Source of the DNA: a virus
IMG/VR virus record: IMGVR_UViG_3300030419_005383
Span: 10,296-74,295 of that record
Length of the DNA stretch: 64,000 bases
Reading direction: 5' to 3' (one strand)
In this document: positions 226 through 56,534 of the stretch, piece after piece
How the letters are laid out: each line of letters starts with the position of its first letter
Position numbering within the stretch: position 1 is the stretch's first letter
Notes under the pieces: generated by a model
The model's input: the letters and a program-made list of their open reading frames with translations, nothing else
The model's database searches: none
What the model was told of the DNA's origin: nothing
Made by a program: the position numbers and the translations under genes

Positions 226-262
226 AAAGATGTAACCACGAACCAACCTGAGAGAACCAACC

Positions 263-1003
263 ATGCCAGAAAGCACATTCAACAACTACAAGCTGAACAA
301 GTCGCTTGGCCTCAACTGGATGACCGCAGGAATGTCCATGTCGCCGGCCACCGAATCAATCGAGGTTGGTGGCCGAAACATGTGCCCCTGGTCTGGAGCG
401 TGCGAAAAGTCCTGCCTGAAGTTTGCTGGCCGAAACCGCAACGCTCAATCCAGGGTCGCCCGTCAACGGCGTACCATGTTTCGCCTTGAGGAATTGGGCG
501 GGTTCATCCGGCTTGTGTCGGGAGAGATTGAGGGACTGAAGCGCAAGGCCGCGAAAGAAGGAATGAAGGTCGCCTATCGGCCAAACGTCCTGAGCGACGA
601 CAGCGTGTTCGCCCTGAAGCTGGCCGAAGCAAACCCCGACGTGCAGTTCTACGACTACACCAAAATTCCCAAACCATGGAAACGGGTACGCGAGAACTAC
701 CACCTGACATACAGCCTCGACAACCACAACCACGCCGAAGCACTCGAAGCCATCGAGAACGGTATCAACGTCGCGGTTGCCTTTGACCTTGGCAAGGATG
801 AGCCACTGCCAGAAACCTGGCAGATCCCCGGCACCGATGTCGTGTTGCCAGTGATCAACGGTGACGAACATGACCTGCGATTCCTTGACCCGGTTGGTGT
901 CTTTGTTGCCCTCAAATTCAAAGGCAGCAAGGCTGAGCGAGCCAAAGCGGTTGCGGCTGGCTTTGTTTTCTCCCCAGTCACCATCATGGCTAAGGCGGCA
1001 TGA
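263..1003 (+). CDS. Gp88-like (radical-SAM-related) phage protein
   Basis: N-terminal CPWSGACEKSC cysteine motif plus RPNVLSD, VQFYDYTK, NYHLTYS, INGDEHDLRFLDP and LKFKG motifs typical of the gene product 88 family. Confidence 0.75.
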   Translation: MPESTFNNYKLNKSLGLNWMTAGMSMSPATESIEVGGRNMCPWSGACEKSCLKFAGRNRNAQSRVARQRRTMFRLEELGGFIRLVSGEIEGLKRKAAKEGMKVAYRPNVLSDDSVFALKLAEANPDVQFYDYTKIPKPWKRVRENYHLTYSLDNHNHAEALEAIENGINVAVAFDLGKDEPLPETWQIPGTDVVLPVINGDEHDLRFLDPVGVFVALKFKGSKAERAKAVAAGFVFSPVTIMAKAA

Positions 1004-1137
1004 CCACACCACAGGAGGTGAGAACCAATCCCAATCAACCCGAACCCTCGCCGGCCCTGGTAATCCGGCGGGTGCGTTGGGCTCTCCAAAGGGTGGAGAT
1101 TCCAGCTCACCAACCAACCACAACAACCGAGAGAACC

Positions 1138-1224
1138 ATGACTACATATCGTAGATATTCACAGCGCTCCTTGTTCCGCGACAACCGACGCAAGGCCAGC
1201 CCCGAACCACAGGAAGAAGAATGA
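1138..1224 (+). CDS. Putative small Arg-rich peptide (MTTYRRYSQRSLFRDNRRKASPEPQEEE)
   Basis: ATG directly after the conserved GAGAGAACC leader. Stop overlaps the next ATG. Confidence 0.4.
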   Translation: MTTYRRYSQRSLFRDNRRKASPEPQEEE

Positions 1225-1589
1225 CCAATCGAGAACAACAAGCCCTTAAACGAATCGAGCGTTTTTACCGGTTGATCGTAGACCATGACGATATCTATTT
1301 GGACATTGTTGCGCCCACCTTCAACTGGTTCCGGGCGGAAAGCGACGACCCAATGAAGGTGTATCAAGACGCCGTTGATGCGTTTCAGCCGGCCATCGTG
1401 CGAGCAGCCTACATGCTTCGGAAAACCGGTGACTGGCGAGGCTCGGTGCTCAACCAAGATGAGCGGTTGGCTTTGCGTGCTGACCGTCAAGCCGTCGCAG
1501 AGATGATGGTGGAACACTACGTTGATCGCTATTGTGACAGCGCGCGCGTCATCCTTGAGCTTGCGATTGCAGAAAAGTCGGGTGAATGA
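1221..1589 (+). CDS. Hypothetical early protein
   Basis: 122-aa ORF with AACCACAGGAAG leader, coupled to neighbours. Confidence 0.7.
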   Translation: MTNREQQALKRIERFYRLIVDHDDIYLDIVAPTFNWFRAESDDPMKVYQDAVDAFQPAIVRAAYMLRKTGDWRGSVLNQDERLALRADRQAVAEMMVEHYVDRYCDSARVILELAIAEKSGE

Positions 1590-1990
1590 TGGCCCCAGAA
1601 ATTGACCTGTCTGAATCTCACTGGCGTGTGGCGATGCGAATGCACAACCACTCCACGTTGTTTTCTCAGACTCCGTCTCACATCACAAGACCGAAAACTC
1701 CAGATGAGGAGGTGGAAAGCTGGCTCTTCTACGTGGAGCATGAGGTCCGGGCCATTCAAATTCGTGAGCGAATTTTGCGTGAGTGCAAAGACCTGTCTCC
1801 TAAAGAAAGGGATTCGCATGAGCATCTGCGTAGCCGCTCACAGTGGCGAGTCGGACAGTTCAAAAAGGAGCTGAAAGAAGCAGAGCGCAAGGCGCTGCCA
1901 GGGAAAATCGAACGACTGCGTCAGCGGTACGCTGTCAGGAATTTCGTCGCCAAGCGTCAAAAACCTGAAACCACAGGAGAGAACCAATGA
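1586..1990 (+). CDS. Hypothetical early protein
   Basis: 134-aa ORF with ATGA overlaps at both ends. Confidence 0.7.
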   Translation: MMAPEIDLSESHWRVAMRMHNHSTLFSQTPSHITRPKTPDEEVESWLFYVEHEVRAIQIRERILRECKDLSPKERDSHEHLRSRSQWRVGQFKKELKEAERKALPGKIERLRQRYAVRNFVAKRQKPETTGENQ

Positions 1991-2409
1991 CTGACAATTT
2001 GCAATTTCAAATGAGGGTAGCCGAAGGATGGCTGCACTTTACGGAACAAGCACGGTTTGAAAAAATCACAGTGGAACAGCTTGTCCGAAGACATTTCACG
2101 CAATGTCTCACCGAGCCAAATGTTTGCCACGACTGCAACAAACCGTTGAACGCTGAATCTCACGTCTTCGATACGGGAGATGGCGACAAGGATCCGTCCT
2201 GCGTCAGGTGCGGCGTCAAGACGATGGTTTCGGTGAGACTGGACGAATCAACGTGCGTTCAGGAACTGAAGGCTTTGACGGACCCCATCACCGCAAGTGT
2301 TCTGTTTTTCAGTGGCATCGACACAGACCCGAATCATCCGTTGTTTGATGTTCGTGATTGTCTGGAAGAAATGTTGCTTGGCAGCATCCCTGACCTGGCG
2401 GAGGAATAG
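1987..2409 (+). CDS. Hypothetical Zn-ribbon protein
   Basis: CHDC...CVRC pairs. Conserved leader AACCACAGGAGAGAACCAATG. Confidence 0.7.
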   Translation: MTDNLQFQMRVAEGWLHFTEQARFEKITVEQLVRRHFTQCLTEPNVCHDCNKPLNAESHVFDTGDGDKDPSCVRCGVKTMVSVRLDESTCVQELKALTDPITASVLFFSGIDTDPNHPLFDVRDCLEEMLLGSIPDLAEE

Positions 2410-2413
2410 CGCT

Positions 2414-2653
2414 ATGCCTTTTGTTTGCGTCAACGAACGCTACGGCGACGGTGAGTACGAGACTGCCGAAGCTTTCATGGAAATGTGCCAGGAGGTCTTT
2501 GGTGAGGCGCCAACCTTGATTGAGCGGGTGCTGGGTGAACTGTCTGAATTCATTGCGCCATCTTGGTGTCAAAATGAAAAAGAGCGAATGGAGTGCCAGC
2601 GGGCCGACTACGGGTACTGGGAAGTTGTGCTTCGGAAAAATGAAAATGAATAA
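2414..2653 (+). CDS. Hypothetical early protein (MPFVCVNERYG...)
   Basis: GGAGG SD upstream of ATG 2414; fills the gap between neighbours. Confidence 0.6.
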   Translation: MPFVCVNERYGDGEYETAEAFMEMCQEVFGEAPTLIERVLGELSEFIAPSWCQNEKERMECQRADYGYWEVVLRKNENE

Positions 2654-2668
2654 TTTTCACCCCACGTG

Positions 2669-2696
2669 TTGCCGTACCTTTATTGGTGACTACACT
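2669..2696 (+). promoter_or_regulatory. Early promoter class member (TTGCCG-N11-GTG-N2-TACACT)
   Basis: Intergenic; matches the motif at 198. Confidence 0.65.
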
Positions 2697-2716
2697 TTCT
2701 ATGCAAGGGAGAACCA

Positions 2717-3211
2717 ATGACCCAAACCACTTTTGAATCTTTCAAGAAAGAAGCAGGTGACCTGCTCAAACAACCATCACCGCTGGCTGATCAGTTGAAC
2801 AGAATGGTCAAGATCGAGCGGACGGAGCGAGATGCGGTCCGCGGCATGCCTGCCGAGATGGACGGTCAGTTTGTTTCCGGCGTAGACCTGAAAGCGTTTC
2901 GTGATGATGACAAGCGTTTCCAGCGCGTGGCAGGCTGGAAAATCGATGAGGAATGGGATGATCTCGAATGGACGGAATGCTCCACATGTGGATGGTTTGC
3001 CGCGCGAGAATCAGGCGATGGAGACTTCAATTCAATCCTTGATGACGAGTTCGGTTCGGATTGGTTTCTGTGTGACCCTTGCTGCGCCGCAGATGACCGA
3101 TGTCGAGATACGACATTTCCTCCCCGCGAGGAACCGACCAAGCTGGACAAGATCGTCTCTGACCGCCTCACCGATGTGCTTGAGAAATTCGGAATCTTCC
3201 GAAACGACTAA
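2717..3211 (+). CDS. Hypothetical acidic Zn-binding protein
   Basis: CSTC...CDPC motifs. GGGAGAACCAATG leader. Confidence 0.7.
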   Translation: MTQTTFESFKKEAGDLLKQPSPLADQLNRMVKIERTERDAVRGMPAEMDGQFVSGVDLKAFRDDDKRFQRVAGWKIDEEWDDLEWTECSTCGWFAARESGDGDFNSILDDEFGSDWFLCDPCCAADDRCRDTTFPPREEPTKLDKIVSDRLTDVLEKFGIFRND

Positions 3212-3221
3212 AACCAAAGGG

Positions 3222-3249
3222 TTGACACACTATTAAATGTGCCTATCTT
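3222..3249 (+). promoter_or_regulatory. Early promoter class member (TTGACA-N11-GTG-CC-TATCTT)
   Basis: Consensus -35. GTGCCTATCTTAT is identical to 4672-4684. Confidence 0.75.
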
Positions 3250-3274
3250 ATATGTGAACCACAGGAGAGAACCA

Positions 3275-3877
3275 ATGTCCATTTTAAATCAAGCCGAAAT
3301 CGTCGCACTCCAAGCCCTTGGCAACACATCATGTGAGCAGTTGCCAAAGGCCAAGGCGGCCGAAGCGAAGAGCGAGCTGCCGGAAGCAGAGTCCAAGACA
3401 ATCAAACTGACTGCGGAGATTGAGGCCACCGTGTCGAAGGGAAAGCCTCCAGCCGAGCGGCCGAACACCAGTTCTCTCGGCTCAGATGCTGATCTGCGAA
3501 TTCTCGCAGCAGCAGTTGAGGAGGTCAGAGAAGCGGCCAAACGAGACGACAACGGAAGGTTTCGAGACAGCCAGGAGGCATCACGCGTTTTAGACATGTT
3601 GATGGATGTCATCGTTTCCAAGAAGTCTGAATGGTCGGAGCGGCAGATTGAATGCGGAAATGACCCGAAGAAGCGAAAGCAGTTGAAGAAAGACTTTCTG
3701 CTCGAAACCGGCAACCCCGAAGTCCTGATGCGATTCGCTCAGCTCAACAAGGAACTGAAGGCCAACATGCCGAAAGTTCAACCGGCTGCTCCCGTTCGGG
3801 TGACATTTGAAAACGTGAAGATCATGAATTGCGAATTGCTCCGCGACCAAGTCAACGCAGAAAAGGGTGAGGCTTGA
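3275..3877 (+). CDS. Hypothetical early protein
   Basis: Start reassigned to ATG 3275 after AACCACAGGAGAGAACCA. Confidence 0.75.
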   Translation: MSILNQAEIVALQALGNTSCEQLPKAKAAEAKSELPEAESKTIKLTAEIEATVSKGKPPAERPNTSSLGSDADLRILAAAVEEVREAAKRDDNGRFRDSQEASRVLDMLMDVIVSKKSEWSERQIECGNDPKKRKQLKKDFLLETGNPEVLMRFAQLNKELKANMPKVQPAAPVRVTFENVKIMNCELLRDQVNAEKGEA

Positions 3878-4065
3878 TGATGGAAACGAACGACAGACAT
3901 CTGCGGCTTGTCCGAAACGAACGACAAATGAAGGCTTTGCTGGATGACCTGGACCCGACACTGACGGCTCAGGTCATCCAAGACCTGCGAGCGATGCAGC
4001 CCGGCCAGGTCACCAACATCAAGGCAGGCGAAGTCATGCTGCGGGTCACCAGGGGCGGAACATGA
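3877..4065 (+). CDS. Hypothetical small protein
   Basis: Coupled ORF (TGATG overlap upstream, ATGA downstream). Confidence 0.55.
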   Translation: MMETNDRHLRLVRNERQMKALLDDLDPTLTAQVIQDLRAMQPGQVTNIKAGEVMLRVTRGGT

Positions 4066-4658
4066 GACCATCAACAACTCAGATCAGGATCCTTCGGGTC
4101 GTTGCACAAAAATTTCTCTGTCAGATACGCGACGCCGGCCGCGTCATGTATCAGGAGGGTTTGGCTGTGCGTGAATTTCCGAATCGACATCCAGTGGCTG
4201 AGACCGGAATGGAACAACTTAAATTCCAATTCGTCAAAGTCCACCGATTGATGATGATGGCTGGCGCCGAACGCACCTGGGTTTCAACTGGCCAGTTCGC
4301 TGTCCCGCTGACGGGCACCGACGGCCGCTGGTACGGTCCAGAGCCGTTGCCGCGTATCGCAAACGAGTGTGAAGCAGCGAGGCTGCTGCTGACCAAGGGC
4401 GAGCTGCCAGATGGCTACCCGTCCGCCAGGTTGCAGGGTCGGTTCGTTCGCAACCGCGCGCTCTGCCATGTCATCCGGCCAGAGGTCGGTGTACATGACC
4501 TGCACCTGTACGCTGCCTGTCGTGCCCTTGGCCAACTGCGACTTCCCCTCCGGCACCTTCGGCTTCGCCAGATGAACCCCGAAGATCCGGTCGTCGTTCA
4601 GACTGACGCCGACCCCAGCGCATTCGTTTTGATCAAACCGTTCAAAAGAAAAACTTGA
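4062..4658 (+). CDS. Hypothetical protein
   Basis: 198-aa ORF with ATGA overlap. Confidence 0.65.
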   Translation: MRPSTTQIRILRVVAQKFLCQIRDAGRVMYQEGLAVREFPNRHPVAETGMEQLKFQFVKVHRLMMMAGAERTWVSTGQFAVPLTGTDGRWYGPEPLPRIANECEAARLLLTKGELPDGYPSARLQGRFVRNRALCHVIRPEVGVHDLHLYAACRALGQLRLPLRHLRLRQMNPEDPVVVQTDADPSAFVLIKPFKRKT

Positions 4659-4682
4659 CTTTCATGAGTCGGTGCCTATCTT
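4655..4682 (+). promoter_or_regulatory. Early promoter class member (TTGACT-N11-GTG-CC-TATCTT)
   Basis: Near copy of the 3222 promoter. Confidence 0.72.
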
Positions 4683-4723
4683 ATTGGTGTGACCGTTTAA
4701 CCCCACAGAGAAAAGAGAGAACA

Positions 4724-5041
4724 ATGAGCACAAAACGATTCCAGTATGAGTGGCAGCTTTTCTGGGAAGAGCCAGATGGCGAAGTTGACCACAGCGATAC
4801 CATCGAAGGGTTCCACCCAGATGACATCAACGATCTGCTCGCCAAGCGGTGTGAACTGTCCGTCCGCGTGTGGGACCACAGGAATCCCTACGGCGGCTGG
4901 GAAGACGCACGATGTCATTGGAACGATGGCACCCTGACCATCGCCAGCCACCATGAGCCTGCGGCATTCCAATTGCACGGCAAGAAGGTGTTGCAGCGCC
5001 ACCACAAAGAACTGGCTGCATTCATGTGCAACCACCGATAA
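4724..5041 (+). CDS. Hypothetical early protein
   Basis: Start reassigned to ATG 4724 after GAGAGAACA. Confidence 0.7.
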   Translation: MSTKRFQYEWQLFWEEPDGEVDHSDTIEGFHPDDINDLLAKRCELSVRVWDHRNPYGGWEDARCHWNDGTLTIASHHEPAAFQLHGKKVLQRHHKELAAFMCNHR

Positions 5042-5092
5042 CCACCGGGGCCCACAGCCCCACCAACCACACAAACAACGGAGAGAACAATG
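5039..5092 (+). repeat. Intergenic cassette repeat copy 1 (TAA-CCACC-GGGGC/GCCCC hairpin-ACCAACCACAC-GAGAGAAC-ATG)
   Basis: Similar to 5588-5633 and 6132-6183. Confidence 0.85.
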
Positions 5093-5590
5093 CCTGCACA
5101 ATGGTACATTGGAAATGTGAAAAACTGGAAAACCACCTGCTATCGGGTGGAGACCGCCGCAGATTTTACGAAGAGGCGCGCCATCGACATAGAAGTTGTT
5201 CGCGAATGGGCCGGTTCAGATCATGTCGATTTTTGGACTGCTGATGGAACCGAGCGCGAGGACATCACGGAAGACACGTTGATCAAGATGATGGATCCGA
5301 TTTGTCGATTCTTGGTTTTTCAAGGACTGCCCTACACTGGGCATGAAGATTTGCTTCTCAAAAACATTGAGGATGTCTACAAGCGTCTTCGGCTGATTGG
5401 CGACCGCGAAGGAATCCGACCGTCTGATCACAAGGATGGTGAACTTTTCCGACGCGACATCACAATGGATGATCTGATCAAGTTTGTTGGGATCTACAAC
5501 ACTGCCGCCATCAGACGAAGAAAAAAGGTCACCGTCTTTTGCGAAGAACTCAAAATCAGCAGTAAGGAATGGCGAAACTGGGCAGCGTAA
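5090..5590 (+). CDS. Hypothetical protein, tandem paralogue A
   Basis: Long identical DNA blocks shared with 5631-6134. Confidence 0.85.
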   Translation: MPAQWYIGNVKNWKTTCYRVETAADFTKRRAIDIEVVREWAGSDHVDFWTADGTEREDITEDTLIKMMDPICRFLVFQGLPYTGHEDLLLKNIEDVYKRLRLIGDREGIRPSDHKDGELFRRDITMDDLIKFVGIYNTAAIRRRKKVTVFCEELKISSKEWRNWAA

Positions 5591-5633
5591 ACCACCGGCC
5601 CCACCAACCACACAAACAAAGGAGAGAACAATG
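5588..5633 (+). repeat. Intergenic cassette repeat copy 2 (hairpin partly deleted)
   Basis: TAAACCACCGGCCCCACCAACCACACAAACAAAGGAGAGAACAATG. Confidence 0.85.
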
Positions 5634-6134
5634 CCTGCACAATGGAGCATTGAAGATGTCAAAGACTGGGAAACGACCTGCTATCGGGTAGAGACCGCCG
5701 CAGATTTCCTGAAGAGGCACACCTACGTGAGAGACATCGAAGCCATTCGGGATCCCAACGGACCATCCAATATTTGGGCGGCTGATGGAACCGAGCGCGA
5801 GGACATCACGGAAGACACGTTGATCAAAACGATGGATCCAATTTGCAATTGGTTGGTTTTTAGCGGCCTGCCCATGACGGGACACGCGAGACTGACCTTC
5901 AAAAACATTGAGGATGTCTACAAGCGTCTTCGGCTGATTGGCGACCGCTTCGGACGCTACCGACCACAAGATTGGAAGGACAAAAAACACTTCTTCTTTG
6001 ACATCACAATGGATGATCTGATCAAGTTCGTTGGGATCTACAACACCGGCACATCGTCACAGTTGAAAAAGGTCACCGTCTTTTGCGAGGAATTCAAAAT
6101 CAGCAGCAAGGAATGGCGAAGCTGGGCAGCGTAA
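5631..6134 (+). CDS. Hypothetical protein, tandem paralogue B
   Basis: Start at ATG 5631 (MPAQW..., as in paralogue A). Confidence 0.85.
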   Translation: MPAQWSIEDVKDWETTCYRVETAADFLKRHTYVRDIEAIRDPNGPSNIWAADGTEREDITEDTLIKTMDPICNWLVFSGLPMTGHARLTFKNIEDVYKRLRLIGDRFGRYRPQDWKDKKHFFFDITMDDLIKFVGIYNTGTSSQLKKVTVFCEEFKISSKEWRSWAA

Positions 6135-6183
6135 ACCACCGGGGCCCCACAGGCCCCACCAACCACACAGAGAGAACCACATG
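6132..6183 (+). repeat. Intergenic cassette repeat copy 3
   Basis: TAAACCACCGGGGCCCCACAGGCCCCACCAACCACACAGAGAGAACCACATG. Confidence 0.85.
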
Positions 6184-6666
6184 TCCAAACATCCCGCAGA
6201 CGAACCACCTGGGCTCTACTTGCGCCTCTACCCTCCGGGCTGGAGAGCCACAGCCATCTCGGTAACGCACCTTTGCGACACGGATGTTCCGCAAGGCGTG
6301 ACGTTTGAATCAGGCAAATCGTCCGGCTCTAATGTCGCATGTCCTGATTGTGGACTGGATCAAGAATCCGCCGAAGATGAAGATCGTGAGGTTTGGGCCT
6401 ACGAGGTGGACAACGAGGGATTCGACATCTGGACCCGCGCGACCTGCAACGACTGCGAACGGGTGGAGATCTTCCGATGCACAGGCGGGAAGCGTGACAA
6501 GCAACCACGCAATGTGGCGCTCTGTGTGTCGGGTGAACATCGGGACAAAATCTTTCGATGCTGGGACGGACAACGCTGGCGGCACACTCGCCGCCCAGGT
6601 TTTGCCCGGCACGAGCTTGACCGCAAGCACAAGGAATCACACAGCGAGTGGGCAGGTGAATCATGA
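6181..6666 (+). CDS. Hypothetical Zn-ribbon protein
   Basis: CPDC...CNDC pairs; conserved leader. Confidence 0.7.
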   Translation: MSKHPADEPPGLYLRLYPPGWRATAISVTHLCDTDVPQGVTFESGKSSGSNVACPDCGLDQESAEDEDREVWAYEVDNEGFDIWTRATCNDCERVEIFRCTGGKRDKQPRNVALCVSGEHRDKIFRCWDGQRWRHTRRPGFARHELDRKHKESHSEWAGES

Positions 6667-6905
6667 GAAACGCCTGGCACAAAGCGTTGAAGAACGTGGA
6701 GGAGTACGCCCCCATGATCTACCTGAGTGTTGTTTGTTCACAACTCAAAGCGTGCCTGGCTCTCCAGTGCGAACCGGCCGAATACGGTGAGGGTGACCTG
6801 GACCTGAGGAAGTTGGACTTCGTCAAGAGGGCGAAAGCCGATGGTTGGACCTACGACAAGAACGGCAACTGGCTCTGCCCTGACTGCTCCAAGGAAGGTG
6901 AATGA
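6663..6905 (+). CDS. Small Zn-finger protein
   Basis: GWT...WLCPDC motif; coupled ORF. Confidence 0.65.
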   Translation: MRNAWHKALKNVEEYAPMIYLSVVCSQLKACLALQCEPAEYGEGDLDLRKLDFVKRAKADGWTYDKNGNWLCPDCSKEGE

Positions 6906-7129
6906 TGAAACTCTCCGAGATGCGAAAGCTGGTGGAGGAAAGCTCAACGGACGGAGACTTGATCTGCCGTGCCAGCGTGGGTTCATGCCCATCTGAGTTT
7001 AAGAAGGGCGAGACAAAACGAGTCATCAGAGTCAATATCGATTTCTACAGCAAAAATGAAGATCGTTGTGTCTCCGCAAGTGGATTTTTGGAGGTCTGGG
7101 ATGTGGAAGATCACAGGAAAGGTGAATGA
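6902..7129 (+). CDS. Hypothetical small protein
   Basis: AAGGTGA SD and ATGA overlaps. Confidence 0.6.
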   Translation: MMKLSEMRKLVEESSTDGDLICRASVGSCPSEFKKGETKRVIRVNIDFYSKNEDRCVSASGFLEVWDVEDHRKGE

Positions 7130-7290
7130 TGAACCTACCGAGACGCATCAAAGACTGGCCAGCCGAGGCCACTGCTGATTGGAACGAACGGGCTGGCATC
7201 ATGGAGTTTGATGGTGGCCTTGCAAGAAGAGAAGCCGAACGGCAAGCCGAGAAAATTGTTCGACGCCAATATGCGGCTGTCAAAAATTGA
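7126..7290 (+). CDS. Small protein with ERAGIMEFDGGL-x-R-x-EAE motif (not in ORF track)
   Basis: Translated by hand: MMNLPRRIKDWPAEATADWNERAGIMEFDGGLARREAERQAEKIVRRQYAAVKN*. The motif recurs in phage/plasmid replication-associated proteins. Confidence 0.75.
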   Translation: MMNLPRRIKDWPAEATADWNERAGIMEFDGGLARREAERQAEKIVRRQYAAVKN

Positions 7291-7299
7291 ATCACACTC

Positions 7300-7327
7300 T
7301 TCACTTTTCAAAATTCGTGACAAACAT
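7300..7327 (+). promoter_or_regulatory. Degenerate early promoter class member (TTCACT-N11-GTG-AC-AAACAT)
   Basis: Same spacing as the other four; intergenic. Confidence 0.4.
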
Positions 7328-7357
7328 ATATAGGACACAGACAAACAGGGAGAACCA

Positions 7358-7684
7358 ATGAGCCAAAACGAATCCATTTTGAAATGCCTGACGTGGGCGA
7401 CTACCTTTGCGGAGGGTAGCCGGGACGCTGACGAGTCCCTGGGCAACCCGGTCTTCAACGGTTGGCTTGACGATTGCAAAAACGCAATCCAGTCGCTGAC
7501 CCCAGAGGATGAGGCCGACCAGCAGAAAGCCTCCGAAGAGAGAGACCTTGCAGTCGATGCGCTGAAGCAATTCGTGTCGGCATTTGATGCGGAACTTTTC
7601 GAGCTGGTCATCGCGAAGGCGAACGCTCAAGCGGTCATTAAGAAAATCGAATCCGCAGGAGAGAACCATGAACCGCAGCAGTAA
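7358..7684 (+). CDS. Hypothetical protein
   Basis: GGGAGAACCAATG leader; 108 aa. Confidence 0.7.
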   Translation: MSQNESILKCLTWATTFAEGSRDADESLGNPVFNGWLDDCKNAIQSLTPEDEADQQKASEERDLAVDALKQFVSAFDAELFELVIAKANAQAVIKKIESAGENHEPQQ

Positions 7685-7865
7685 ATCTCGCCGCACACGC
7701 CGCAAGGCACAGCGGAAGTTCAAGCAAGCCATGCGTGGCAAGCTTGAGAAAACCACAGGACGGAACTGGTTGGCAGTTTCCGCCCACTTTCGTCGCGGTG
7801 GCGCTTTTAAGAACCGCCGCGCTCACAACAACAAGATGGCATGTCGCCGTCGAGTGGAGGGCTAA
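7668..7865 (+). CDS. Small Arg/Lys-rich protein
   Basis: ATG 7668 after CAGGAGAGAACC; MNRSSKSRRTRRK...RNWLAVSAHFRRGGAF. Confidence 0.7.
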   Translation: MNRSSKSRRTRRKAQRKFKQAMRGKLEKTTGRNWLAVSAHFRRGGAFKNRRAHNNKMACRRRVEG

Positions 7866-24961: not shown

Positions 24962-27900
24962 TCATTCATCTATAGCAGATTCAGCTTGGCGTTTTTTCTC
25001 TACTGTTGCTTTAGACAAATCTCTCAGGGATGAGCGCAAGGCACGCTGAATCTTAGTTTCTTGCGTCTCTACAACATCAGGAACAATACCTATTACGCCC
25101 ATTGCCTCGCCGGGAGAGAACGCGGCAGGGTCTTCACCAGCAACCAGCTCTGTACGAGGCACCATTGTTTCCGCGGCAACCGTACCGGGTTGTGCTTGTA
25201 TGTATGTTGACGTACCAGGCAGTCTCACTCGCCTGTGTCGGGGCAAATAATGTGAATCAATGTCATCGAGAAACCCTTCACGGTTTCCGAACTGACGAAA
25301 TTGATAGCCAACCTCCAGCATGGATTCAACGGCGCCCATGTTTGCGCGATCTAAGCGATCAAAAAGCGTCATCTCACGCCCTGCAAAAGGTAAAGGCGCC
25401 ATATTTTTCCACATATGGAACAGCAGGGGACCAAGAGATCCGCCGGCTTTATAAGAGACAGTTTCTCCAGGCACCTTTTGATATTCAGGGTCACTTGGCC
25501 CCCAAACTTCCGCACCAAACAACTCGTCAACGACGTACCCCCCACTGGGGCCATACCGGTCAAGATTGACGAACCAAGATGGGATAGTGCCTGAACGCCG
25601 AAGGCTTCGATTGAAGTAGAAGTTTTGTTCAGTAACAGTGACAATTGGAAGCATTAAAACAGGGTTCGTCATCGAGATAAACTCTCGAAGACCCTGATCA
25701 CCTTGCTTGGTGCCATGGTAAGCAGCCGCATCGAAAAGGTTCAAGAAAGGCATCATTGCTGTAAAAGCGGGCAATTCAGGCGCATACCAGGCAACTTGCT
25801 TGTTTTTCATCCGGTTTAGAACCGACTTCATTGCAAACATGACCGGACGGCTTTCGAAGTAATGCTCTTCAACAAGGACAGGTTCTTCTTCAAGCCAGAG
25901 GTTCTTGCTGCCTTTGACCAGGCGCATCTGTGCCAGGATTCTGCCTGGGTTGGTCAACAACGTCTCGTAGAATAAATCCAGATTCTTGCGCTGGAAACTG
26001 TAAAACATAAACACAATACGCATGAAGGATTTTTCGAATTCAGTCAGCGCCGAATAGTCCATGCCGATCTTGCGCGCCCTCGCCGCGGCTTGACTGGGAG
26101 ACAGGCCGCGCTCTATTTCAGAAATCCAGACAGATACGCGGAAGATGTTGTCCATCGCGGTCGCGAATTCCAGAAGCGTTTCCTTCCAGGGTCGATAAAC
26201 TTTCTTAATGAATCCGGTCGGTGACTTATACCACGGGGCCGTGTCCAGCTTGTCTCGCAGAATCTCATGGACCGCTCTCGCTGATTCAGCCTGAGGGAAG
26301 CTGCTTTTCAAACTGTGGGCAATAGCCATATTACCGAGACGATTTGCTGTATATACACGGTAATCTTTCGTGATTAGGGGGCGCGCGTTTGGCTTCCAGC
26401 CACCCTCTCCCCACATTCTGGAAACAACAGCACCGACCAAATTGGAGTTCTTGGTAACCAGGCTTGTCCCCATCCTGGCCATGGTCGGAACTGCCTGCGC
26501 TGTAATTTTCCCCGCCTTTACCGCCCCAAGGCCTTGATGAACAGCCGCAGCAATTCCCATAAACGCGGCCATGTAGTACGGTAATTCAACCAGACCGGTC
26601 CCCGTTGTCATGTGCTGCTTCATTCTGGAGTGCGTCAACGGATTCAGCTCAAAAACGGTGTCAACGGCTTGAGCCAGTGTCAGCTTCGCCTTCTCGGTCG
26701 GGCCCAGGTCTTCTGGAATAAACTCAGGGCCAAGCTCTGTTCCTAACAGGCCCTTCTTGGTAGCCTTTAGGCGCCCCTTAGCGGCTATATCCTGCGCCTT
26801 ACGTGATTTTGCTCCCGTCCAGGCGTAGCCGATTTGAGACAGCCTATTGGTCATCTCTTCAATTTCTTTGATGGCGGCTTCCGGCAGTAAAGTAGTGCTC
26901 CCGTCAGGGAATGTGTGTTGTTGGAAACCTGATTTTGCGTACTTGATTCCCCATTTTTGAACATACTTATGCGCAACCGTGTAGGCCTCAAGATCATCAT
27001 TGTTTACGGTCAAGCGCCAGTCAGGTTGACGCGGTGGTTTTGGTCGCGGTGTTTGAAGCCTTCTTTTCTCAGGTTTTCTGATTGCTTGATAATTAAAGCT
27101 CATGATCTGATTGATGTGGTGATGCACATTCTCAACGAATGCGATTCGATCAATCGACGTGTCAGGTGAGAAGCCGCGGTGTGAGGTCAGTTCTCGGACA
27201 TCTCCCGTGTACCCGTACTTTGCCAGGTTGTGCGAAAGCACAGTCAAGATTTCCATGAACCGCATCCGCATGATCATTTCAAGAATCGCCGTTGCGGCGT
27301 CATACTCATACCCGCTAACAATCAGGCCCTTTTCTTGAGCCAGATTGATCATCTCCATGAATCTGCCTTGATAGAAATTCTGATAAATGCTGATCAGCTC
27401 ATACTCATCAAGGTTCTTCACAATGCTAAGATCATCGGCTCCAGACAAGGATATTGCCAGATTTTCGGCCCGAACCAATACTTGTTTTTTACGGCGAACA
27501 AGCCCATTGTGAATCACCCGGATCGCATCTGACACCGCATATCTGTCATTGTCAGACAGTTCCACCAAGCGGTCAGGATTGGTTGGGTCAATGTAAGATC
27601 GAATAATATCCAATGCTTGACGATCTTTTGGATGCAGCCCCCAGTATTCAGTCAAGTACCCCTGGATGTTGTCCAGCTTTCTAACCAACATCTGAAGATC
27701 GAAACCTTCATCCAATTGATCAATTTTGATGTCAAGTTCTTCTTGGGTTTTGAACCTTAGATCTTCACGGCTGATAACTCCAGACAGATCTCTTTCCATT
27801 TCTAAAATCGGTTTCAGGTCAGAAAGGGCAACAGGTGCATTGAGGTGCTCAATCAAGTGGTCATACAACTCTTGGACTGTTCCTTCCTTGTTGCCTTTTC

Positions 27901-30900
27901 TCCATTCAGAAACCGCACGAACAAAGAATCGTGGATTGTCTTCACCCAGCCGAAGCGAGTTGTTTATGAGGTCCCGAACCGCTGGGTCCATCAGGTCTTT
28001 GCCAAATTCTGGCACAATGAACAAATCGCGGAATTTCCTTCTGACGTTGTCGATTGATTTAAACAAAGCCCTGTTGTCAACTTTGTCGAAAACCTCGCCC
28101 ACATACCGAGTAAAGGCGAGGGCCAAGGAACGGCTCATTCGATCATCGTATCGATTGACTCGTGCAGCCACGCCTGCGCTTACATCAACCAGAACCTCAT
28201 GAATGTTTTGCCAGTCGGCAACCGCAATCTTTGTGAAGTCACTTTGACGGAAAAACCTGTCAGGCAGAATGTTGCCCATTGGTTCATTTGCCAGCTCATG
28301 TACCAAACGCTTGATGCGAGCAGCCTGAGGCGGATCAAACTCAATGTAGTCGGCCTCATCAAGCAACCGTGCGTTGGGGTCTTCCTGCATGTAAGATCGA
28401 ACAAGTCCGGTAGCATCGCCCCTGCTGACCAATTTGATTCGCTTGACAAGCTGCTTGGCGTTTTCACCAACAGCATCCATCAACCGGTCAGTGACATCTT
28501 TTTTGATTCGGGACACCCTGCTTGCTGGAACAATCGTCCGAATCGTCATCCTCACTACGTTTTCTGCACGCTGACTTCTCTTAAACCGCTCCGCTGCCTC
28601 TAAGCCCATAGAGCGAACAACAAGCGCGATTGCGTCGATCTCGTCTCCAGCCTTCACGCCAAGCTCTTGTCGCAACGACTCCTCATCGCCCATCAACCGC
28701 ATACCCGCACGCCTTCGACCGGCTTTTCCGACCGGTGATTCAAGAACCCGCTCAGCCATGGCTGTTGGCACCATTTCAGGTGAAATGTTCTTCAGTCGAG
28801 TGAACACATCCGAAACAATCCCTTTCGACACTTCTTTGAGAAAATCATCTGCCGACAAGGGGGGACCGAGCTTTTCGTCACCTCCTTCCAGTCGGAGCCT
28901 TAAGTCACGTCCTTCCAGTCTTTTCAAAACATCTGAAATGATCCCGTCCATTAAGCCTTGGATTAGATCATCAGGCAATTCTACTGGGACTCTCGAATCT
29001 GCCATAAGTTTACGAATAGCAGTATCAGCAATATCAGACGCAATGCGTTGAGCTACTTGCCGATCCCGTAAACGAAACACCTTCATCAGTGGAGTCAGTC
29101 CAGATTTGTCATCCGCTTGCGAGACGGTCCTGGCGACATATCCCTCGATGGACTTTTTCACGCGGCCAGCAACCGAACGCTTCAACTGAACGACTGGTCG
29201 CTTTTGAGTCTTCTTCAAAACGTCGTCGGTGATCTTTGCGGCAGGCATAGCCAGCAGCTCGGACGGCCTGTACAGCTCATCCCAGAACTCAGCCAGGTGC
29301 TTCGGCAAATTGTGACGCTTCTGACGGATTAGGCGCCAAAGATTGCGAAGCTCACCGTGAAGCTGACCAATCAGTCGATTCACGCCTGGATTGTACGAAG
29401 CCCTCTTGGTTTCCCACCATTGAGCAAGGGCATTAGCAAATTGTTCGTGTCCAGCGTCAGTAAGTCGCCCGTTTTGGTCTGTATCAAAAAAGCGGAATAG
29501 CCAGCTTCGCCACTTGTCACCCATAATGGCCTGCAACAAGTGTCCATTTTCATGAGCAAGTGTATCAAAGCGCCCAGTCGAGAAAAGGCGAAGTAGATAC
29601 GAGGCCGTTCCAGACTCGTCCGTTCGAACTTCGAAACTGCCGCGTGGAGAATCCGGCCCGCCGTCGTAGCGAATCGATGTTGGAAGAGCAGGCTTGGCCT
29701 CAGTCGGAGCTATCCGAAAGGCATCCGCGAGGACATCAAGGACTGTATCATCTGGTTGAACTCCGAATCGCTCAATGGCTCTGTCGTAGGCTGCGCGGTT
29801 GACGCTTGGGTGCTCGTACCAGTTTCCTCCAGCTTCTTGGGAGAGTCTGGCGAGGTACTTTCCTGTTGGTTCTCCTTCTGGCTGCCGGGGGAGGATTCGT
29901 TCTTCTGGGGAGAGTTTTTTGAGGACATCTTTGGCATGGGATTTAATCTCTTTTTCGAATTTATTTTTTGACTTTAGATCAAACCCAAAGATTCGACCAT
30001 CGGAGGTGGCGGCAGCAAGTATGCCGTTTCCGTGGACAGGATCCAGAGCATGCAGATCTGCTTTCGGGACGTTTACATAATAGAAACCCAGGATGGGTGA
30101 CCTCTGCTCACCCATCCGAACATAGACACCACGATAGGGTGATTCCAGCCCAAACATCTCTTTGACCAGCGCCTCGCCAGTGGAATGCGAGATGAGCTGC
30201 TGGTTCGCCGCTACCCATGTTTCCCAATGGAAGCGACCAATGGAAGCATCTTCTGGACGGCCCAATTTCTTATAGACTTCGGGTACGATCTTATTAAGGG
30301 CGCCTTCCACGGCCTCATAGAACAGAAGACCGCGGGGCCCATCAAATACCGACGCAAGACCTGGTTTTTGGGACCATGGCCGAAATGATGCGGTGCTTTT
30401 GTATCCACCTTTTGGCGCCTGCCATCCAGTGTTCAGACTGCCGGGATTTCCGTATTCATTGGCCCGATTCGCGTAGTCATAGATGTGCCTGGTCTGCCAT
30501 ACATCCAAAACAGCCGTATCGGGTCGCCCTGCCATCAAAGCGACAAAGCTCATCACTTTGTTTTGAATGCCGACCCCCTGGCTCATCGTCCAGAATTGCC
30601 GGCGCACTTCGCTTCCAGACAGATTTTGGTCGGACATCAGTCTATGTATGGCCTCCAGTTTAGTCATGCCTGGATACCGATCATGATTTACAGGCAACCG
30701 CTCGCTCATCCGCCTCAAGAACAGATCACCAAACGCATTGAGATTCATCAACGCCTGTGTGCCTGGAGAGCCCGAATACTTGTTAAGATTCACGATGGCC
30801 CGAGCACGCTTCCGCCAGGCGGCTTGCCAAACGTCATCCCATTCGCCGCGCAGAGCGACATTGATGAATTCGTCTACGCCAGCATTGACGGCATCAATGA

Positions 30901-33900
30901 ATCCTGCCTCTTGAATCCAAACAGAAGAATTTCGGCTGAGCATGCCCCACAGAAACAGCTTCGCTGTATGGCGCGGTTGAGCCCGCCCGGCGGCATATGC
31001 TTCGCCAAATTTCTCAACAACACTAAAGCCTTCATTTACAGCGCTCTGCTGTTCAGCCGTGAGGTTCTCTTTCAGGAAATCAACAACCGCATCAGGGTTG
31101 TTGTAGTATTCGATCATCTTATACGGGGGCTTCACCACGTTCTTATCATTCGTGGCGTTAAACCAGAACTTCTTCCATTCGGCTTCACTCGAAAGCATCT
31201 TGCCTTCTGGCCAACGCTCCAGCAAGGCATCGATTTTAGCTAATACATCGTCACCACGGCGGGTCGGATTCAATGGAAGGGCCTTTTCCTTCACGCTGTC
31301 ACGGGGCTTGAACCTCGTCTTGATCGCCATCGGGGCCGGAACAGCAGCGAGAACCTCAATTCTGAACGCCTCACGAATCCGTCTACGTTCTTGTTCTGGT
31401 AGAGCCTCACGCTCGGCCTTGGGCATCTTTGCGTACTTGGCCAGCGCCTTTTTTCCTATGGGAACAATTGGCGTCTGCTTGGAATCCAGAAACGCCTCAA
31501 CGTCTTGGTCCGTGAATTCGGCGCCTTCATGTTCAGCCAGGTCGCGTGTAATTTTTGGCGGGACTGGCGCCTTGCTGGGTAATGGCTCTACCATTCCCGC
31601 TGGAGGGGCCACAGATGGTTCCCCTTCTCTGGGGGCCGTCAAAAGATCATGCTGAATCCTCATGGCCTCAGAAAGCGCGTTTCTGTCTGTTTTCGCGATT
31701 CCGAGCGCATCAGCCACCCACGAAAGCAGCCGGCTCCAAACCGACTCCTGGGTGTCAACGAACACGATGTCTTTCAATATTGACTGGAATTCTGGATTAG
31801 AAAACGCTTCAGCAAGAAACTCCTTTGCGTTTTTCAATCCATAAGGAAGGGTTCTCACCACCGGTTCATCGTCAACTATAAGTTGTTCCAAATAGTCAAC
31901 TTCCTCACCGAGAGTCTCTCTTCTTTCTTCTTGCCTCAAGTAGCCATCAAGCCTGTCTCTGACGTACTCCCAAAGATGATCCAACTCTATAGAGGCTTTT
32001 CCCAATGGGGTTGACGGGCCCTCACCTAAGCCTTCGTTGTACCGCATTACGGTTGCTGCATGGACCAGCTCATGGAGCGCGGTTTTTTCCCAATCGCCAG
32101 ACCGCAGCTTTTCATTGGGTTGATATAGATCGATATGGGGACTAGGCCGACCCGGCCCGAGCCAATAGTATATTCCCGTCCAACCCTCTGGATGCGCGGC
32201 CTCTGTGGTTTCTATCGATACATCATCGGTGATGAACTCTTCAATATATGCAGCGATGGCCCTTATTTGATCGGTTGTTCCGTTCTCTTTTATCCAGTAG
32301 ACAGCCTCTTTTGCGCTTTTCCACTGCTTGGCTGCTTTTCTAAATTTAAGATTTGAATCAGCACGAATACTGGGCGGGATTGGCATGGGTGTACGGATCG
32401 CAGGACGTGCGCCATTCCAGAAAACCCTGGAATCTAAGCCTCGGTAAATCAAATTGTAACGATGTAGCGCACGTGAAACGTCACTTGAGTCCGCATCTCT
32501 TACAGCATCAACCAACCGAAGCGCCTCTTCGGCAGCTCCACCAGCCTGAAGAATCCTTGCTTCAACGGCCTTCCAGTCGATAGTGTCGTCAACTTCAATA
32601 AATTCTTTGAATAAAGAATCGATAAATTCATCACTGAAAACATCGCCTATATCGTCAAGAAGTCGTCTGGCCTCACCAAAAGCGACCTGCCTGAATGTTT
32701 TAATCGCAGGAAGAATCTTCTCTTGGTATTCCTTGATGGAGCCGATTTCGGTCAGTAGTTCACGGGCCTCTTCATAAATCGCCCGATCAACATCGTTTAG
32801 TTCTTGGTCCTTGAGACCCATGAACCGTGAAAAGTCTGCTGGTGTATTGAACGCCCTGCTTACCACATCTGTTGATACGCGCTTCTTAATGCCATCGGCC
32901 TTTATCCTTGCTTGTACTCGATCTTTTCTCTCTTTTTCTCGCTTAATCACGGCCCGTTCTGGCCCTGTATACCGAGACAGACCTTTGGTTTGAGATTCAA
33001 ACCTATCTTCGGCCTTAGCATAGGCGTCGAAAACTGCTTCATCGTTCGCCAGAGTGAGTGCAGACGCCTTGCGGAGGACTGTTCGCTTTAACGCTTGAGC
33101 CATCGGAGAGACCCACTTGTACTCAATGGACAGTTCAGAACCTATCGGTAAACCGCCACGGCGAACTTGATATTCGCGATTGATGCCACGAAACAGTGAG
33201 GTCCATTCATCCGATTGAAAAATAGAATGAAGTTCAGCATTGAGACCGAGCTGTGTTTTGGTGTCTTTGAGGCCCTCAATCAATCCGTACAAATCGCTCC
33301 GCCGAATGTTTTTCTGATCAAACCGCTCAATCACGCCCTCATAAACATCTTCTATCGTCCATGGTTCTCTGTCCAAAAGATGCGACTTTTTGAGGCTACC
33401 CTTATCTGAAATTAGAGGCTCAATATCTTTAAGTGCAGCCCGAAGAGCATCTATGGCGCCTTCTGGAATCCCTTTAAGTACAGCGCCTTCTGGAACTTGA
33501 GTGAGATCCTGAAGGATTCTTTCTATGTTGTTGAGGTCACTCCAAACGAGGCGTTCTGCCATTTTGACCTGTTGACTAAAAATACCCCCAATGGCCCTGA
33601 TCGCATGCCAGGGTGTATATTCAAATCGGCCATATTTGGTTTCAGCCGAGAGGCGGGTTCCCATTGTTGCGGTTTCAATCAATTGACGAATGCTGCCGTA
33701 GCCACTCTCAACATCGAGATCTTCCGGCCTGTTGGCGTTCCAGGCTCTCTCAAGCGAGTTCTTGACCCACGATGCTGACTCAAGCAAATAGTTCGGCCAT
33801 GCTTTCGGCAGCTCAGGGGGCTTGTCAGGGGGCTTAAGGATAACTTCCGGGTCAAGCGAAGGCAGCGGATCTCTGGCGCCCTCGACGCGCGGGGATGTCA

Positions 33901-36900
33901 GCCAGTCGGCGGGGCGCTCCATAAGCTCTACATCAACAACAATCTTCTTTTTGCCCATTCCGCGCAGGGCTTCAAGACGATGCCGACCATCCATGATGCT
34001 GTGGAATGTTCCGTCTGCATTGATGGCGACTCTTGGCGGGGCCATAGGTTTACCCGACTTAATGAACTCAATCGCTCCTTTCAGTCTTCCGCTTCCCCAT
34101 AGTTTCTGTACAGGAATGTCATCGATGTTGACGACACGGGGCTCTATGTATTCCAATCCGGCAAGGGTTCCTGAGTCTTGACGCATCAACTCTTCTACGT
34201 CATGACCCATTTCTATGATCTCGTCGCGCATTTCCCGAGCCCGGTCTGCCCGAGATCGATACGACACACCCTCGACTTCAGTCACCGCTTCAACTGGTTG
34301 ACCTAAGACCTCGACGCGGGCGGGGGGCTCTACACCCTCTGGCGTTTGAAAACGAGCACCAGGCCCAGGTTGACCGCCAACCCGATGGTTAATCTTTTTG
34401 AAGAAATCAATCGGGGTGACGATGTCAGGAATCATATCGTCAGATGAATGAGCAAGCGCCTGATGCTCAAGAAGCGCAAGATGTATGACCAAGTCCTGGT
34501 CCGTCAGGTTCCCCGCTTTGATGTATTCGCTCAGCTCATCCTTTACGCGCAGATACTCAGGGTCTTTGCGCATACTCATTTCAGTCGGGGTTCCGTGCTG
34601 TAGAAACCGCTGCAAATTTCCCGTGTAAAGAGAACGGCGACCTTTCATTGCGTTGTTGAAGGTCTTGATAAATTCTTCTGTGTCCTCAACGCCCGTCTCT
34701 TTGAGTCGGTTCTCGAAGGCCTCCAACCGATACCCACTCATGCTGTCCAGGGGGCTGATCCCCAGCTCGATCATCTTTGCAGCCAATTGCATTGTTGCGT
34801 TGTTGACCGCAGAAACCGCGTCCAAGTCTTCCTTTTTCTGAGGGTCTAAGGCGGCTTCTTCTGGTGGCTTCACAACCCTTTGATAAATCTCAGGTCCGAC
34901 ATACGCTGACATCATGTGCGTAGCCATAGACAGCTTACTTGTAATCGGGGCGCCATCTAATGCTTGAACCGCCCTTTTGGCTGCAACCGAACCCCGCAAT
35001 GCGTTTGCGGATCTTCTTACGCCAAACCCAAGCGTTCTGAAAATTGGAGATTCCCAAGGAACAAGGAAGTCCGCCGAAAGACCGCCAAGCATTCCATACA
35101 TCCAGTAACCTTCACCAGGCCTGCCTCCGTTTGCCATCATGGCTCTTCGCGTTGCCATCATCGCACCAGAGTCACCAGTAGCCACGTTAGCCAGGCTTTC
35201 CGCCATCCAGCCGGTCAAAGTCAACTCTTGATTCTTGTCTTTGACTCCAAGTACCTGATTCAGAGAATCGCCCGCAAAAACCGGAGCATCCATCAAAAGC
35301 TGTAATTGCGGCTCCATCAGCAGGTCCGCACTTCTCATGACCCGGCTCATGGTCCCTTCAATCAAGTAAAGCTGATTCCCTTCCCGAACAGTGGTTGTCA
35401 TATAGGAACCAACCGACTCTTCGAGCTTTGTGGTCGGAGCCGCACGTTCAATCATGCGTCCAGTTGTCTCGATGACTGATGCCGTATCAGGAACAGATTC
35501 AGCGAACTTGAAGTTCATTGAAACCAAGGTTCCAAATTTCACCTGATTCAGCCAGTTTTGGACTTCAGACAAGTCCACTTCATCTTCGACATCATCTCCA
35601 GCCAAATCGAGTATCGTCTCAGTAATCCAAGGCCAGTCCGATGTGCCGTAGGCAGCATTCATCGCCTTGCCAAGGTTGCGGTCGTACCTCGCCCAAGATT
35701 CATAAGTCTTACGCTGTTCCGGTGTTGCCTCTTGCAAAATATGAACAAAAAGACGCACATCCGGCATCCGTGTGGGTCCGCCATACTCCTGCCTGAGACT
35801 GCCTGGAACATCCACATATGAGACATTCTGCATCTGATCTAAAAGAATTCCAGAAACGTTCGAGTCTGGATTTTCCTTCGCATACCGAACAGTTTCCATC
35901 AACTGAGCCCAAGCATCCGACCACTTGGCTTCTGAAGTTCGGACTCTGCGCTCTAAATAATATGCGCCCCTTTCCTCAGGGGTCATGAAAGAAGCGCCGG
36001 CAACGCGCTCAAAGAAATCGTTGCTCTTTTCATGAAATTCTCGATAGAGCTGAGCCATCGACTTCAACGCTGGAACGCCTTCTCGCTCCTCATCAGACGA
36101 CAATGCGGTTGTGACAAGCAGTGCCGGCAACTGCATAGGCGAAACGGTTGCAACGCTTGACGGAGGCAGCGATTCCATTGCCTCAATCTGACGAGCAAGC
36201 GGAATCCCGGCAGCGAGAATGTTGTCCATTGCGGTAGCTGATTCAGGGTCCGTATCGACAAGCTCCTGCCGCGCTGACCGGATCTTCATATTGGCTTCTT
36301 GAACGCCTTTTGCCCACTCTTCAACTTCAGCATCTGCCTGTTCAGGCGTCTTGCCGTCCATATGGACCTTCTTCTGCTTCAATACATACCGGGCTCCCTC
36401 AAAAGCCTGCGCCATACCTTCGGCAGTAAGCTCTTCCGCCATATTGCCTGCGCGGGAAAGCTCAGTCACATCCAGGGTTCGGTTGAAAAGGTCCGCCAAG
36501 TAGCCTGGGTCGTCAATCTCGTGAGCCAGAGCTGTTCCACCAGCAGCGCCACCCATTGCTCCAACAATCCAGCCGCCAGGAATCTTCAGCCGGGAAGCCA
36601 AAACAGAACCACCCGCTGCGCCAACTATGGCTAATTCTTCCGCAAACTCAGGAACGTCAGGAAGGTCCCCCTCTGTGATCTCTTCCTTAAAGGCCGGCTG
36701 CGTGACTCCGATCATTACATCTTTGAGGCCCCTGAGAAGCTCTCCAGACTCCTGCGCTTTATCCAGGGTCTCTTTGTACTCCGCTTTTCTTTTCGCGGGT
36801 TCATCAGGATCAATAGGCTCGGTGACTGGCAGCACTCTCGGCCCAAAGACTGTCTTACCTTTTTCGATCGTGGCGCCGGGCGTCTCGTCGCCTGGGATTC

Positions 36901-56490: not shown

Positions 56491-56534
56491 CAAAAACTCC
56501 TGTGCTACCCTATTAGAAATACCACGAGATTCAT

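Follow-up and report, generated by a model that had tools for sequence, protein, structure and literature searches.

A shared A/C-rich leader on the early genes of a marine phage and a candidate small RNA that may read it

Why would a phage place nearly the same A/C-rich stretch of bases in front of about a dozen of its early genes? We addressed this question in the genome of an uncultured marine phage, IMG/VR record IMGVR_UViG_3300030419_005383 (74,295 bp, judged complete), using a window of 64,000 nucleotides that corresponds to bases 10296-74295 of the record; all coordinates given here are those of the window. An earlier note on this DNA had described a bipartite translation leader whose conservation reaches beyond the Shine-Dalgarno (SD) sequence into the spacer before the ATG. 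It had proposed that this leader is a regulatory address, read by a small RNA encoded at 60.9 kb or by a protein such as a CsrA-type binder, rather than just a strong ribosome-binding site (RBS). Our analysis leads us to consider it somewhat probable that the element has two functions, as an ACA-rich translation leader without structure and as the address of a small RNA (sRNA) of ~79 nt. Because the gene of this RNA is the mirror image of the leader, the RNA would probably turn a set of ~18 early genes down together, as judged from the sequence.

The leader and the genes that carry it

We first consider the leader itself. Between positions 235 and 7670, a GAGAAC-containing leader precedes the starts of 11 open reading frames (ORFs), at 263, 1138, 1987, 2717, 3275, 4724, 5090, 5631, 6181, 7358 and 7668, and a partial copy precedes the start at 1221, which bears out the description of a near-identical leader before about a dozen early ORFs. 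The longest repeat, the 21-mer AACCACAGGAGAGAACCAATG, was said to be identical at 1969-1989 and 3257-3277; it occurs in exactly these two copies and nowhere else even when three mismatches are allowed, and shuffled sequences are expected to contain none. The shorter core GAGAGAAC has 15 matches in the window against 2.7 expected, and nine of these, all 1-6 nt upstream of an ATG, fall within 250-7666 on the + strand. We also scanned the whole 74.3-kb genome for copies of GAGAAC that have, at most 10 nt downstream, the start ATG of an ORF of at least 25 codons. This gave 20 sites, all on the + strand, 18 of which fall in the early region; that region starts 10.3 kb upstream of the window, and the leader motif continues there.

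The description of the leader as bipartite is accurate: its upstream half (CCAACCACA or AACCACAGG) and GAGAGAAC stand 0-12 bases apart, with variable sequence in between. Genome-wide, CCAACCACA occurs five times, in four early leaders and at 60938. The downstream sequence GAGAGAACC occurs 11 times, always on the + strand, in nine leaders, at 60957 and at one further site.

The leader is confined to early genes. When starts were called with a generic SD score only and GAGAAC was sought within 18 nt upstream, it was found at 16 of 41 early starts and at none of the 13 middle or 48 late starts (Fisher 5.8e-7), so that the motif is not equally frequent at late genes; equal frequency would have spoken against the earlier proposal. 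Late genes indeed use ordinary SD sequences, as had been stated: their RBSs read GGAGG, TAGGAG or GAGG with mixed spacers, and never GAGAAC. Base composition follows the same division, with an A+C fraction at positions -25 to -1 of 0.64 for early starts and 0.49 for late starts (Mann-Whitney 1e-5), and early leaders contain twice as many ACA triplets as late ones. The leaders are nearly free of structure, with folding energies of their own between 0 and -4.7 kcal/mol.

Early genes without the motif mostly start in an overlap with the preceding stop codon (ATGA or GGTGA-ATG-ATG), that is, they are translationally coupled, and the leader therefore marks sites of independent initiation. Its occurrence does not depend on a promoter: besides promoter-proximal genes, it serves two internal cistrons (1987 and 7668), lying there across the 3' end of the preceding ORF, and genes behind intergenic hairpins (5090 and 6181). 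The early region contains ten copies, all on the + strand, of a 28-nt promoter family with the consensus TTGNCN-N11-GTG-NN-TANNNT. One lies at 198-225 (TTGCCG-N11-GTG-CT-TACATT), three more at 2669-2696, 3222-3249 and 4655-4682, and six upstream of the window; two members of the family pass a generic sigma-70 scan. The leader or a close variant (GGGAACC or GGAACCAACC) stands at seven or eight of the ten promoter-proximal genes, in agreement with the claim that most such genes carry it.

A candidate small RNA complementary to both halves of the leader

A single locus outside the early region contains both leader halves in order, on the + strand at 60938-60966, and no ATG follows it on that strand. 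Read on the - strand, this locus is a candidate gene for an sRNA of ~79 nt (60978-60900), consisting of a 5' hairpin, a single-stranded linker and a terminator. A predicted promoter at 60985-61013 on the - strand (TTGACG-17-TAGTAT) fits the early promoter family apart from one additional base. Block A of the RNA, UGGUUCUCUC (60957-60966), lies in and beside the apical loop of the 5' hairpin and is antisense to GAGAGAACCA, and block B, CCCUGUGGUUGG (60938-60949), lies in the unpaired linker before the terminator and is antisense to CCAACCACAGG(G). The intrinsic terminator (60908-60939) is formed by a 12-pair stem followed by a T-run. The RNA folds more stably than its own shuffles (z = -3.9). 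The locus has three features of a trans-encoded base-pairing sRNA with a multi-target regulon: a promoter of its own and a Rho-independent terminator, both predicted, around a short non-coding transcript; an exposed seed complementary to multiple start regions above chance; and a seed that is conserved or co-varies with its targets in relatives. Rfam covariance models, those for GcvB and C4 included, gave no family at gathering score anywhere in the window. A small ORF opposite the RNA was considered and rejected, since no ORF is conserved on that strand at the homologous loci of relatives.

The predicted pairing partners of the RNA are early leaders. Both blocks find a match at 13 of 41 early starts, 0 of 13 middle starts and 0 of 48 late starts, and 13 of the 15 best cofold energies among the start regions of the genome belong to early leaders. 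Cofolding with ten leaders gave bipartite duplexes that extend from about -18 to +5 relative to the AUG, with changes in free energy (ddG) of -13 to -24 kcal/mol. Their mean was -18.1 kcal/mol, compared with -10.3 +/- 2.5 for RNAs with a shuffled head.

We then turned to relatives of the phage. A total of 54 viral contigs carry a TerL gene whose product is 47-74% identical, and several of these contigs, at 70-75 kb, are complete; the relatives compared reach a TerL identity of up to ~74%. Five full genomes at ~70% TerL identity showed no enrichment of GAGAAC-ATG sites. The uncoupled early genes of the relatives have the same architecture, an A/C-rich tract, an SD sequence and an A/C spacer, with a variant particular to each genome: (CAA)n in G002, ATACACAGGAGA in G003, ACAAACACGAGGA in G005 and GGAGNACAACAATGAGT in G007. 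Ten of 12 loci bearing rusA have a G/U-rich stretch that ends in a strong terminator just after rusA, and two further genomes, G002 and G003, have a G/U-rich element with a terminator nearby. The reverse complements of these G/U-rich stretches resemble idealised start regions, some of them including the ATG. In one subfamily, the seed stands out as a conserved island where the rest of the spacer has diverged, and compensatory changes are seen in the terminator stem.

Eight such RNAs were each scored against the start regions of eight genomes, and a six-genome version was run as well. The RNA's own genome ranked first for six of the eight, and the cognate assignment was the best of 40,320 permutations, a figure that is not a strict probability because the eight genomes are related; self-hits do not inflate the cognate scores. 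Such a ranking would be expected if the RNAs evolve in step with the leaders. By direct similarity, blastn of the RNA region found no match among the 54 related loci. Pattern scans returned two matches in viral contigs, which look like chance, and 120 matches in metagenomes, none similar to this genome.

The RNA locus was also compared among close variants of the phage, using contigs from four marine DNA runs. In the other marine strains the locus is almost unchanged, and divergence begins at 60863, with a different gene downstream. The RNA is thus kept while the downstream gene is replaced, which argues that it is a separate module and not merely the leader of that gene. In contigs of three other marine runs, the match extends down to 60863 and is followed by an unrelated gene start (ATGGCCACGATTTC..., - strand). 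This mosaic junction coincides exactly with the RBS of a gene for a 433-residue protein, which is swapped at this point and therefore replaceable. No relative of the 433-residue protein was found in viral contigs, and the few homologues that it has are too divergent to serve as queries.

Individual leaders and their surroundings

All leaders lie on the + strand. The leader of the GP88-like ORF 263-1003 (234-265) reads AACCACG..AACCAACCT-GAGAGAACC-AACC-ATG, has a cofold ddG of -19.8 kcal/mol, and makes up nearly the entire 5' untranslated region (UTR) behind promoter 198-225. Before the ATG at 1138 (1108-1140), the sequence is CCAACCAACCACAACAACC-GAGAGAACC-ATG (ddG -21.6). The partial leader of ORF 1221-1589 (1203-1223), GAACCACAGGAAGAAGA-ATG, matches the upstream block only. 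The exact 21-mer serves ORF 1987-2409 from within the 3' end of ORF 1586-1990 (1969-1989; ddG -15.5) and, in its second copy, ORF 3275-3877 (3257-3277; ddG -16.9). The predicted transcription start of promoter 3222-3249 falls within a base or two of 3257, so that the second copy would be the complete 5' UTR there.

Two further leaders follow promoters, that of ORF 2717-3211 (2704-2719; CAAGG-GAGAACC-A-ATG) behind promoter 2669-2696 and that of ORF 4724-5041 (4699-4726; AACCCCACAGAGAAAA-GAGAGAAC-A-ATG) behind promoter 4655-4682. ORF 5090-5590 has its leader at 5061-5092 (CACCAACCACACAAACAACG-GAGAGAAC-A-ATG), behind a GGGGC/GCCCC hairpin, and a near-identical leader (5602-5633) precedes its tandem paralogue, ORF 5631-6134. 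The N-termini of these two paralogues are also near-identical, both starting with ATGCCTGCACAATGG. The leader of ORF 6181-6666 (6157-6183; CACCAACCACACA-GAGAGAACC-AC-ATG) has the best ddG of the ten folded, -24.1 kcal/mol. The last two belong to ORF 7358-7684 (7335-7360; ACACAGACAAACAGG-GAGAACC-A-ATG) and ORF 7668-7865 (7655-7670; GCAG-GAGAGAACC-ATG), the latter lying within the 3' end of ORF 7358-7684.

Several other elements were observed near or in resemblance to the leaders. Hairpins of the form GGGGC(C)...G(G)CCCC, without a U-run, stand between an early-gene stop and the next A/C-rich leader at 5046-5060 and 6141-6157, and a degenerate copy precedes 5631; they could be RNA processing or stabilising elements. 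Just past the ATGA overlap of ORFs 263-1003 and 1000-1224, the sequence ACCACAGGAGGTGAGAACCAAT (1008-1030) combines the canonical GGAGGTGA site with the GAGAACCAAT spacer in hybrid form and is followed by no ATG. On the + strand at 56326-56338, GGAGAGAACCC lies inside the - strand late gene 55909-56598, so that the late mRNA has an 11-nt antisense match to the leader core, which may be due to chance. In the relatives G001-G004 (loci L065-L080), many early genes are joined by a nearly invariant 14-mer, GGAGGTGAGTGATG, which combines an SD sequence inside the upstream gene, a TGA stop and the next ATG, and constitutes a second conserved start signal in the family.

Small ORFan genes on the + strand are followed by genes for replication proteins (primase, two helicases, a YqaJ-like nuclease and RecT). 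Genes for structure and packaging, including TerL and an SLT-domain protein, occupy the - strand from ~17.5 kb of the window. Among them, a 4060-residue ORF (24962-37144, - strand) has no Pfam match, and the genome layout resembles that of N4-like phages. A Pfam search of twenty early proteins gave GP88 as the single family hit. The phage is apparently lytic, and marine or seawater metagenome runs of many studies contain its DNA and that of close variants. The best TerL match among cultured phages is Roseobacter phage CRP-7 at only 26% identity, too distant to point to a host or its 16S rRNA. The early 8 kb showed no DNA similarity to cultured phages, no rRNA genes were found in the record, and no tRNA genes were found in the window.

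Proposed mechanism, rival explanations and known systems

In the mechanism that we propose, the leader, a 5' UTR of ~20-35 nt with ACA-type elements, a GGAG core and a fixed GAGAACC-A spacer, would load ribosomes efficiently on every uncoupled early cistron. The host polymerase would make the sRNA together with the early mRNAs. Because its promoter is of the early family, the RNA would accumulate alongside its targets, kept stable by its hairpins, and would with some delay slow down the synthesis of early proteins. Block A would pair with GAGAGAACCA and block B with CCAACCACAGG, with an 8-9-nt bulge between the blocks accommodating the variable linker of the targets. Given the span of the predicted duplex, 30S binding should be blocked: the SD sequence and the AUG would be hidden from 30S subunits, the mRNA would be exposed to decay, and genes coupled downstream would fall along with the first cistron. 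The need to match a single RNA would also explain why the spacer is uniform within this phage and different between relatives. We infer the expression of the sRNA, its pairing in vivo, the repression and its timing from sequence features.

The roles of enhancer and sRNA address most likely coexist. ACA motifs upstream of the SD sequence promote initiation in enterobacteria, where the G/U-rich GcvB sRNA silences them (PMC3879156), so both halves of the proposal have precedent. The earlier suggestion that the leader is an address of the 60.9-kb sRNA is therefore one that we retain in qualified form: promoter, terminator, antisense halves, early-only matches and relatives all favour it, and the RNA and the repression are predictions. 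Likewise, conservation does extend beyond the SD sequence, as the shared GAGAACC spacer shows, but the wording "rather than just a strong RBS" was too sharp, because an A/C-rich, ACA-containing, unstructured leader is family-wide and probably also an enhancer.

Several observations weigh against this proposal. The promoter of the sRNA is a match to a consensus only, and it is of the early type; since the RNA and its targets would be made together, a clean switch from early to late expression does not follow automatically. Both blocks match at only about one-third of early starts. The background of pairing between G/U-rich and A/C-rich sequences is high, with shuffled heads still reaching -10 kcal/mol, and one of 100 shuffled heads equalled the pairing of the real RNA. 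A genome-wide scan, one not based on translation initiation regions, failed to separate cognate from foreign pairs by its top-10 ungapped score, and the cognate tests were therefore made on start regions. Long-window RNA duplexfold scans were uninformative. Among the relatives, which as noted are not independent of one another, G008 shows no cognate preference. Finally, the exact 18-mer CACAGGAGAGAACCAATG follows A/C-rich sequence and serves as a start region in seven viral contigs (L002-L008) that are unrelated to this phage and share no close proteins with it, suggesting that part of the leader sequence may simply be a good RBS.

This last observation bears on the view that the leader is only a very good RBS, spread by duplication or recombination and without a partner in trans, in which case the RNA, if made, would act elsewhere, for example on host mRNAs. 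A/C-rich leaders with ACAGGAGA are indeed family-wide, the paralogues at 5090 and 5631 share their leader by duplication, and ACA motifs enhance translation on their own (PMC3879156). We nevertheless regard this view as unlikely. It leaves unexplained why both halves recur once, inverted, with a promoter on one side and a terminator on the other, and why relatives keep such RNAs, each fitting its own leaders best. The 21-mer also shows no change at the site where it lies across the end of another gene's coding sequence. The repeats might instead be recombination boundaries, mobile promoter and leader cassettes that shuffle small early genes and are conserved at the DNA level; promoter-early stem-loops of T4-type phages have been proposed as such cassettes. 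Here, too, leaders flank ORFan early genes, hairpins precede several of them, and the strain mosaic junction at 60863 lies exactly at a start region. However, the motif has a single orientation and keeps a strict distance of 1-7 nt to the ATG, which cassettes do not predict, and the splitting of its halves by variable linkers is unlike a recombination site; we think it improbable that recombination accounts for the motif. Cassettes may contribute, and such a role is compatible with one at the RNA level.

The remaining explanations concern who else might read the motif. It could be a binding or cleavage site for a protein, either a host CsrA-type binder of ANGGA or a phage factor resembling the T4 repressor RegA or T4 RegB, which cuts GGAG in early SD sequences. 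The sequence ACAGGGA at 7342-7348 is one that we take to resemble a CsrA site, and an RNA binder could exist among the early proteins that have no Pfam family. In T4, early start regions are marked for RegB/S1 by the long consensus GG*AGRAYARAA, and RegA represses ~30 mRNAs at unstructured sites (PMC3014915). A search of the genome for CsrA homologues found none, and searches for RegA and RegB homologues, both made without a positive control, likewise found none. The leaders are unstructured and lack the GGA in a hairpin loop that CsrA prefers, so they do not qualify as CsrA sites and this part of the earlier proposal is not upheld; nor would a protein site predict a mirror-image RNA that co-varies with the leader. 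On these grounds we have little belief in a protein reader. Least credible of all is an extended SD sequence fitted to an unusual 16S tail of the host. A deviant 16S tail in the host of this phage would give the idea some room. With the canonical, near-universal tail ...GAUCACCUCCUU, only GGAG within the leader can pair. The coupled genes at 1586, 6663, 6902 and 7126 use GGTGA, and the relatives use GGAGGTGA, often as the junction GGAGGTGAGTGATG, both of which fit the canonical tail, and late genes, translated by the same ribosomes, never use GAGAAC.

If the sRNA acts as proposed, it would have implications for the control of lytic infection. Timing in lytic phages is usually ascribed to promoters, RNA polymerases and proteins such as RegA and RegB, and an sRNA of this kind would add an RNA layer to early shut-off. 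The phage appears to tag its independently translated early genes with one RNA-readable leader, and its relatives appear to have changed tag and RNA together; such a compact, orthogonal pair would also lend itself to the simultaneous control of many genes.

The nearest precedent in mechanism is GcvB, in which a G/U-rich unpaired region pairs with A/C-rich ACA elements at and shortly before the SD sequence of many mRNAs, and in which the targets double as translation enhancers, so that one RNA silences a regulon (PMC3879156). GcvB is, however, chromosomally encoded by the host, depends on Hfq and acts on amino-acid transport genes, whereas the candidate RNA is encoded by the phage and would act on the phage's own early genes. 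Its pairing would also cover the SD sequence, the spacer and sometimes the AUG, and the two share no homology of sequence or structure, as judged by the lack of an Rfam match. The c4 RNA of P1 and P7 is similarly a phage-encoded, trans-acting antisense RNA, of ~77 nt, whose loop stretches pair with two stretches of the target around its RBS and block translation (PMC12197685). In contrast to the dozen or more dispersed targets proposed here, c4 has a single, adjacent target operon (ant) and serves immunity in temperate phages, and no Rfam C4 match was found in the window. The RegB and RegA systems of T4 resemble our case in a shared, extended, unstructured motif at early starts that goes beyond the SD sequence, in the coordinated shut-off that is proposed here, and in the escape of middle and late genes (PMC3014915). 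They differ in that the T4 effector is a protein nuclease or repressor, of which no homologue was found here, and in the motif itself.

The closest sequence feature is the start-associated sequence (SAS) of Cluster K mycobacteriophages, a 13-bp AGGAG motif that lies 3-7 bp before many non-structural starts in one orientation (PMC3203893). SAS is conserved beyond the part that pairs with 16S rRNA, its function is unknown, and its authors leave open a phage RNA or protein as partner; in several Cluster K genomes, a single copy occurs in the opposite orientation (PMC3203893). Our leader shares the placement and the one-orientation rule and does not match the 13-bp consensus GGGATAGGAGCCC; host and lineage also differ, extended SAS contain inverted repeats that are absent here, and no partner RNA of SAS has been described. 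None of the phage sRNAs listed in a 2025 review acts on a leader common to many early genes of the phage that encodes it (PMC12197685). It is quite conceivable, and we suggest it tentatively, that start-associated leaders of lytic phages in general are tags read by one co-evolving phage "anti-leader" RNA, which would throttle the early regulon. This would provide a testable answer to the role of start-associated sequences and, if it holds generally, would explain SAS-type motifs and define a widespread class of phage riboregulators. Taken together, the system described here, a member of none of these families, is closest to GcvB and c4 by mechanism, to T4 RegB and RegA by purpose, and to SAS by sequence feature.

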